From positions 124,001 through 188,000 of the forward strand of contig NW_024055458.1 of assembly GCF_902713615.1 (NCBI RefSeq): a stretch of 64,000 bases of DNA. Reading direction: 5' to 3'. Position numbers and translations under genes: made by a program. Of the stretch, positions 14,324 to 15,646 are shown one piece after another. The first letter of the stretch is position 1. Each line of letters starts with the position of its first letter. The notes beneath the pieces were generated by a model. The model searched no databases and was not told the DNA's origin. It was given only the letters and a program-made list of their open reading frames with translations. Origin of the DNA: Scyliorhinus canicula. Its lineage: Eukaryota.

Positions 14324-15646
14324 AGTAAACCATCTACTTTCAGGTGGTATATTTGTCAGCAAGGTGTAAGGGTTTGGAACTTCTACGGGCATATCTACCA
14401 CTACCTCATTAATTGCCCTTAGGTCATGCACCAATCTCCATTTTTCTCCGTCCGCCTTCTTTACTGGTAGGAGCGGGGTATTACACCTACTCCGGGTTTC
14501 CTTTAATACCCCTGCTTCTATCATTCCCTCAATCGTTTCTCTAATTCCTTCAATTGCTTCTGTCTTGATTGGGTATTGTGGTCTATAGGGCCCCTGGCGT
14601 CCTGTCTTTAATCTGACTTCAACTGGATTAGCGTTTTTAACCCTCCCTACATCCGTGTCCTGTCTGGACCACAACTCCTGTGGGAGGGAGTTCAAATCCT
14701 GCTCTAAGCTCTCTCTCCATTCCCGCTCCTGTTTCTCACTTTGCACTCCTATTGTTATCTGCTTTGGTGTCCCAAGCATCCTAACATCCAAAATTATTTT
14801 CGTCATTTGTCCATCGCTGGACGTCCAAATATCCGCACTGTCTGTCTGTACAAATTCTAAGTCTTGCGCTCTTAACACCATGGGTCCTAGGTCCTTTGAT
14901 CTATATCCCGGATTAACTTTCAATGTGACATGTGGCTCCGCCCCAGGTACAGAGAACCATTTGTCAATCCATTCATTCCTAACGATTGCGAGGGCCACTC
15001 CCTCTAGTCCAATTAAAATACTTCCTGACTTTATTTCCTGTTCTCGTCCTGCCTCCTTTTCCCATTTCTCTTGTATTTCAGGTGCCTGTCCTTCATCAAA
15101 TATCATTGTACTATGTAATTCTGTTCTCGGCCACTTGGCTTGTGGAACCCAAGTGTCTATAAGTTTTCCCCAGACTGTCCAGATCTGTTTTTTAATTTGT
15201 TCCTCTATATCTCCCAGCCAATATACATTAACCCCTTCCTTTCCTGGTACCTCAAGTGAATACATTCCCATCAAATCAATTCCTTGTTCGGTACATTCTA
15301 ATTTCAGTCCCAGACCTAGGATTGCGTCCCTTCCCAATAGATTTAAAGGAGTTTTATCATATACTAAAATAGGTACATGGGTAGTTTTATTTCCAATGGT
15401 AATAGGCACCGGCATCGTCATTTGAGCTAGTGTTATTTTCCCCGAGAACCCCACAGTTTTTACAAACCGGTTTGACAATGGTAGGTGATCCGCATATTTC
15501 GTTTGTATGCACGTACAGGTGGCACCGGTGTCTATCATCATGGGGACCTCGATCCCGCCTACTCTAGCATTAACTATAGGTTCCTGCTCTGCGGTTTCTG
15601 TTATTTGTACGTACTGTCCTACCATTTCGGGGTTCTCTGGGCCTCT
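14324..15646 (-). CDS. pol: Pol N-terminal part: aspartic protease, putative 2H phosphoesterase, partial RT
   Basis: Open for 441 codons after the gag TAG. IDTGAT (Asp at 15530-15532) and LLGRD protease motifs; LHSTM and PHVTL; RT ends at WFT, then reads into PLE sequence to TGA at 14294. Confidence 0.9.

Follow-up and report, generated by a model that had tools for sequence, protein, structure and literature searches.

Enzymes of the 2H phosphoesterase superfamily are already on record in the retroviruses of fish. Passages of PMC4977317 (citing Basta 2009) mention a CNPase or a macro domain as an occasional component of teleost epsilon-like elements, and those of PMC9503650 (citing Mazumder 2002) place 2H domains in the retroviruses of fish and in WDSV; the statement in the initial annotation of this DNA, that such domains had been noted in teleost retroviral polyproteins, is thereby borne out. 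The domain described here belongs to an endogenous retrovirus (ERV) of the shark Scyliorhinus canicula, and its occurrence in a shark, together with the family that carries it, is an addition to this known kind. The literature covered, with most subscription papers outside its scope, yielded neither a description from a shark nor a functional test of such domains, and the main text of a paper on elephant-shark ERVs (PMC4422223) contains none of the words 'phosphodiesterase', 'CNPase' or 'cyclic'. Domain and virus are of the kind found in teleost epsilon-like elements and walleye viruses, the identity of their domains being as given in the accessible text of the citing reviews; the shark family differs in its cartilaginous-fish host, and in being a young, high-copy family in which selection can be measured.

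Among 2H enzymes, vertebrate CNPase is the one whose chemistry is most pertinent to what follows. For the mouse enzyme, the accessible text of PMC4643303 has His309 activating the water and His230 protonating the 3′-oxygen, whilst Phe235 and Val321 hold the base between them; a helix, alpha7, is there called unique to CNPase among 2H enzymes. The physiological role of CNPase is called enigmatic in the accessible part of PMC5283653, and 2H folds are described in passages of PMC11410667 as switching substrate readily.

The window, that is the whole stretch of 64,000 nucleotides that was analysed, holds a provirus on the minus strand, the strand on which all its features given below lie. Its 5′ LTR (TG...CA) is at 18620..19383, where BLAST aligns it at 91-96% with that of another natural copy. 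The primer-binding site at 18595..18615 corresponds to the tRNA-Ser(TGA) 3′ end and shows a 2-nt insertion in the window copy. The gag gene is in two pieces by frame analysis: a 5′ piece (17175..17822), broken near 17175 by the loss of about 430 nt, and a 3′ piece (15647..17182) with a CCHC zinc knuckle, ending in a TAG that is in frame with pol, i.e., in a read-through layout. The pol frame comes right after this TAG and stays open for 450 residues (15646..14294), with the provirus itself cut at 14323 within the reverse transcriptase (RT), the 3′ part missing and a host repeat beyond. The window copy is thus defective and cannot act as a virus; the domain within it is itself unchanged. Epsilon-like (class I) ERV features found in the family are the LTR, the tRNA primer site, gag, stop and pol in one frame, an MLV-like RT and an integrase C-terminus, and 4-bp target duplications were found in three of the four copies checked.

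The primer site matches the 3′ end of host tRNA genes: its pattern has 26 exact matches, against 0 for a control, and ARAGORN read six of the pattern's matches as four tRNA-Ser(TGA), one tRNA-Leu and one without a tRNA. A role for the domain in healing a cleaved tRNA-half primer was considered and rejected, as the primer site fits an ordinary tRNA-Ser 3′ end. As a separate observation, one position of the primer-binding site differs between copies of the family. Among 20 copies 18 such sites were found, and 13 of these have one to three additional purines roughly 10 nt into the site, which may reflect slippage during recopying of the site, and only 5 of the 18 match the tRNA-Ser end exactly. 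The provirus has T-cell-receptor-like V exons as neighbours. These lie at about 21.4k and 25.1k (plus strand) and at 27.5k, 31.2k and 35.9k (minus strand), and adjoin a tandem array, at roughly 5000-14100 of the window, of four to five units that are each about 2.4-2.6 kb long and 95-98% identical; a run of N occupies 52823-53340.

Between protease and RT, the pol frame holds a stretch that belongs to neither. The retroviral protease is recognized as Pfam RVP at pol residues 20-116 (15299..15589, E 7e-12), similarity to the MLV RT sets in from pol 326 on (E 4e-19; RT N-terminal piece, 14323..14749), and the folded insert takes up pol residues ~137-299 (14750..15238; residues 15-177 of the structural model), giving the order protease, insert, RT. 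Its measured length of ~165-180 residues agrees with the ~170-190 extra residues first estimated at this place, and so do the two H-x-T motifs then pointed out, whose positions, open frame and spacing of 61 residues are as described. The first, H178-S-T180-M with the aromatic F183 (15098..15115), has its histidine codon at 15113-15115 within LHSTMIF; the second, H239-V-T241-L (14921..14932), has it at 14930-14932 within PHVTLKV. When the 187-residue insert is shuffled, two H-x-[TS]-hydrophobic motifs arise in only 19 of 20,000 cases, and because shuffles so rarely give two, and because the motif columns rank with the best conserved in the relatives, the pair is more than chance.

Neither Pfam, with 0 families on the insert at E≤1, nor a sequence search of the PDB with the domain, with nothing under E 1, names the insert, but the model built for it does. 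AlphaFold, from 108 sequences, folds it with pLDDT 92.6 and pTM 0.87, placing the H-x-T motifs on predicted strands 57-62 and 117-122 of the model. In Foldseek against the PDB, all 50 matches listed at E≤0.001 belong to CNPase of vertebrates or to RICH of goldfish, the best at E 4e-7, and in VIA-align the best match is CNPase, at Z 16.3 and rmsd 2.7 Å over 161 aligned residues with 12% identity; across at least 38 CNPase entries among the matches listed, Z runs from 15.1 to 16.3 and identity from 12 to 16%, a ranking to be read with the many CNPase entries that crowd the PDB. Next comes region 639-832 of a fungal tRNA ligase (Z 12.8, rmsd 3.8, 151 aligned), and the LigT/drCPDase group follows at Z 8.5-9.3. 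A second, distant family of the same genome, described below, gives a model of pLDDT 84.7 with CNPase again first, although this is only partly independent, most rows of its alignment being common to both families. On these predictions the insert is a two-lobed domain of the 2H superfamily, as the initial annotation had proposed.

Outside the PDB, the best Atlas matches, at a score of 0.96, are to phage clusters with PF08302 (tRNA_lig_CPD) in 31-75% of their members, and the best viral model in BFVD is Q2VF30 (1072 residues; TMq 0.80, 30% identity), followed by proteins of WEHV1 and WDSV (Q9WHI8, A4GTG3). The last two are labelled 'Envelope polyprotein', and the domain may there sit in Env and so have moved between Pol and Env.

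Relatives are numerous at the sequence level. HMMER over 1.84 billion representatives returned 142 matches at E≤0.001; a word-index search gave 1 match of 210 candidates for the first family and 0 of 172 for the second, and PF13563 is reached by only 3 of 108 relatives, at E 0.013. The closest named relative is from Mustelus asterias, and the named ones among 20 matches looked up belong to a ray and to various teleosts (Danio, salmonids, a cichlid, pipefishes, the characin Metynnis and a smelt); in many of the teleost records the domain again sits between protease and RT. Conservation was scored on 139 rows, with four repeat-rich false matches (P0008, P0014, P0115, P0143) left out and the Mustelus match taken in. 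The motif columns rank at the top, with His178 kept in 96 of 104 rows that have a residue there, Thr180 in 100 of 105, His239 in 122 of 129 and Thr/Ser241 in 124 of 129, and with both histidines present in 83 of the 94 rows spanning both motifs, figures that are inflated by the choice of relatives for similarity to the query. Conservation of the two histidines across relatives was what the initial annotation had asked of a genuine 2H enzyme. The mean identity across 18 elements is 27% for the domain and 43% for the RT, and the two sets of identities correlate (rho 0.70, reached in 0 of 2000 permutations; 18 rows, close pairs driving part of it), which is consistent with the domain having descended together with the RT.

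The likeness to CNPase extends beyond the overall fold. The domain has in common with the vertebrate enzymes (mouse 2xmi/9eru, human 1woj, goldfish RICH 2i3e; PF05881) the pair of H-x-T motifs, an aromatic residue at the first histidine+5 (98 of 116 rows), with F183 spaced as the base-stacking Phe235 of mouse CNPase, and a helix with a glycine at the second histidine+15 (117 of 124 rows). This helix is predicted at pol 250-260 (14867..14899; residues 128-138 of the model), with G254 as the conserved glycine, and matches the position of alpha7 in an alignment with the CNPase of the same genome. That host gene is the only one returned by a genome search with PF05881. The profile of the viral family aligns with its last exon (E 6e-4, probability 29%) from the strand that precedes the second motif to the end of the helix beyond it, and runs on ungapped once past the histidine; the first host CNPase exon is aligned over 13 columns only (E 0.06). 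From the model, together with this weak profile alignment, the viral domain is predicted to have an alpha7-like helix. There are also differences. The viral domain is ~45 residues shorter, has 61 residues between its histidines against 79, is only 12-16% identical, shows Lys or Arg (second histidine+12, 101 of 127 rows) where CNPase has Val321, has no equivalent of Arg307 in the family alignment, and gives no match to the PF05881 profile. CNPase has an N-terminal kinase-like domain and a lipid anchor; the viral domain is without either, and is flanked instead by retroviral protease and RT. The cyclic phosphodiesterase (CPD) part of fungal tRNA ligases (6u05; PF08302), which acts on RNA>p ends, and its phage look-alikes resemble the viral domain by the Z and Atlas scores given above; the viral domain differs from the former in having no ligase or kinase partner, and in being fused to protease and RT.

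Taken as a guide to chemistry, these resemblances argue for a CNPase-type 2′,3′-cyclic-phosphate 3′-phosphodiesterase borne by the virion as part of Gag-Pol, a reading that rests on analogy and that we consider the probable one, with moderate confidence. Such an enzyme would turn 2′,3′-cyclic phosphates, on RNA 3′ ends or on free 2′,3′-cNMPs, into 2′-phosphates, and would probably do so within the virus particle or beside it. By analogy with CNPase, His239 would activate a water bound where the alpha7-like helix begins, His178 would protonate the 3′-oxygen and Phe183 would stack on the base, and the Lys/Arg at the Val321 position hints at an RNA end, not a free nucleotide, as the substrate. 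To judge from the layout, read-through of the gag stop would bring the domain into particles at the level of Pol, and the protease would then free it or leave it on the RT; its packaging in virions is inferred from its place in Gag-Pol.

Three kinds of substrate had been suggested from the sequence at the outset, namely 2-5A, cyclic dinucleotides and 2′,3′-cyclic-phosphate ends of RNA, and it is the last that is best supported. The first appears to be the weakest of the three, on account of the CNPase-first Foldseek ranking, the alpha7-like helix and a report on OAS and RNase L in teleosts. Destruction of 2-5A, silencing RNase L, is the activity of other members of the same superfamily, such as coronavirus ns2, rotavirus VP3 and AKAP7, and OAS-family genes, with 8 exon matches to PF10421, are present in the shark genome at three places. 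The genome also has two KEN-domain genes, with one near-identical exon common to both, which we take to be IRE1, and a search of it for the AKAP7 family found exon pieces. 2-5A is, moreover, the target proposed for the 2H domains of RNA viruses in passages of PMC9503650. On the other hand, alpha7 in CNPase obstructs the side that 2-5A-cleaving enzymes use for their substrate (accessible text of PMC5283653), a similar helix being predicted here, and the named relatives are mostly from teleosts, fish being said to lack OAS and RNase L in the accessible text of bioRxiv 693333; the accessible parts of PMC6307210, PMC8535693 and PMC4192899 have nothing on OAS loss. The coronavirus phosphodiesterases match the model in BFVD only at E 0.006 and 0.019, and we regard 2-5A as a very improbable substrate.

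The strongest rival is a phosphodiesterase for 2′3′-cGAMP, of the kind of the phage Acb1 and avian poxvirus LigT-like enzymes, blunting the cGAS-STING sensing of reverse-transcribed DNA. Retroviral DNA does trigger cGAS, the pathway would exist in teleosts too, and six matches to Mab-21-family genes are found in the same genome. Viral 2H enzymes that cleave 2′3′-cGAMP are described in passages of PMC11410667, whose main text makes no mention of walleye, Retroviridae, salmon or fish. Against such a role, Acb1-labelled models in BFVD match only at E 0.03-0.26, and the model puts an alpha7-like helix on the very side that a 2′-5′ link would take up, so that we hold it unlikely. More generally, ns2/ORF4b, VP3, AKAP7, Acb1 and the poxvirus LigT-like enzymes share with the shark domain the 2H superfamily and two catalytic histidines, and the viral ones are like it virus-encoded; but the structural scores that link it to the 2′,5′-phosphodiesterases and Acb1 are weak (E 0.006-0.26), and their open side is the one blocked by alpha7 in CNPase. 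AKAP7, ns2, VP3 and Acb1 are not among the best 50 PDB matches listed for the model of either family, which at that depth does not speak against kinship.

Some fish retroviruses have macro domains, and the enzyme could work with these in processing ADP-ribose 1″,2″-cyclic phosphate or related NAD by-products. CNPase and macro domains are named together for teleost epsilon-like elements in the passages of PMC4977317, and those of PMC9503650 discuss 2H domains acting on cyclic ADP-ribose phosphates. Yet no macro domain was found in the 21 proteins scanned (pol of both shark families and 17 long matches included), and CNPase, with its alpha7, is contrasted in the accessible text of PMC4643303 with plant CPDases that take the ADP-ribose cyclic phosphate as substrate; we give this route little credence.

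A search of the 4.2-Gb genome found at least 96 full-length matches to the domain at 93-100% identity, window copy included, at least 44 of which sit in an unbroken pol frame of 1457 residues (hand counts and lower bounds, 150 of 394 candidates having been scored). Of 20 copies examined, chosen mostly for long frames, six have both LTRs in the stretch retrieved, and since these paired LTRs are 99.5-100% identical, the ERV family is very young. The second, distant family has a 1306-residue pol, an env gene and the same insert, with at least 151 matches to its domain from 150 of 796 candidates scored, and its domain is only ~27-29% identical to that of the first. Two further observations concern these copies. 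In several whose two LTRs are 99.5-100% identical, deletions have shortened gag and env and left the pol frame whole, which suggests a deleted subfamily that still spread. Matches at C9:175384129, C9:78103117 and C16:101246801 are 46-49% identical to the second-family domain and lie in long open frames, suggesting a third family with the insert.

Selection on the domain could be measured between the two subfamilies of the first family. Its dN/dS is 0.17, and in the same pairs that of the protease is 0.32, of RT 0.12, of RNase H 0.16, of integrase 0.12 and of the C-terminal tail 0.67; the 63 pairs, from the 16 of 20 copies with an unbroken collinear pol, are not independent, represent essentially one branch and come from copies chosen for an open pol. 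Fixed differences between the subfamilies in the domain are 11 synonymous and 5 replacing, and a residue is altered in 22 of 40 distinct variants, against the 79% expected by chance (p 6e-4). The domain is under purifying selection. This goes against its being a neutral passenger or linker in pol, as does the retention of its motifs across elements whose RTs average 43% identity. The defect of the window copy and the structures of MLV-type RT, which begin without the domain, would suit a passenger, and most retroviruses, to our knowledge, lack the domain; even so, we consider the passenger largely refuted.

That the selected property is binding and not catalysis is a further alternative. The domain could act as a decoy or competitor against the host CNP, which is encoded in the same genome, or it could be an RNA-binding module for RT. 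In a table of a review (PMC7471995), CNP is listed as a protein that binds HIV-1 matrix and blocks particle formation. The catalytic residues of the domain are, however, among its most conserved columns, all four of them intact in 20 of 20 fetched copies, and host CNP is too distant in sequence for its surface to be mimicked; a role in binding thus strikes us as rather implausible.

This leads back to the cyclic-phosphate phosphodiesterase, of which the benefit to the virus is the least certain step. The enzyme might clear the cyclic-phosphate products of host RNase attack, either as immune agonists or as blocked RNA ends, in the latter case healing RNA that has been damaged. TLR7, for its part, senses retroviruses and is present in fish. 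Cyclic-phosphate ends are the products of metal-independent RNases (passages of PMC9503650), and 2′,3′-cGMP, a product of RNase T2, is described in the accessible text of PMC11470960 as the natural ligand of pocket 1 of TLR7 in human cells. It is tempting to speculate on an early capture of a CNPase-type enzyme by fish-type retroviruses, kept by selection in sharks, rays and teleosts as a virion enzyme that destroys the TLR7 ligand 2′,3′-cGMP along with RNA>p, though as a whole this scenario is a long shot.

The shark family thus offers a small, well-folding viral version of the enzyme that is under purifying selection and comes with a clear prediction, cyclic phosphate and not 2-5A, which turns its role into a testable question. 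If cleavage of either cGAMP or the TLR7 ligand proved true, the domain would be a new retroviral immune-evasion enzyme; and if it were the TLR7 ligand, it would be the first viral enzyme directed against that ligand, as well as a handle on the purpose of CNPase chemistry itself.
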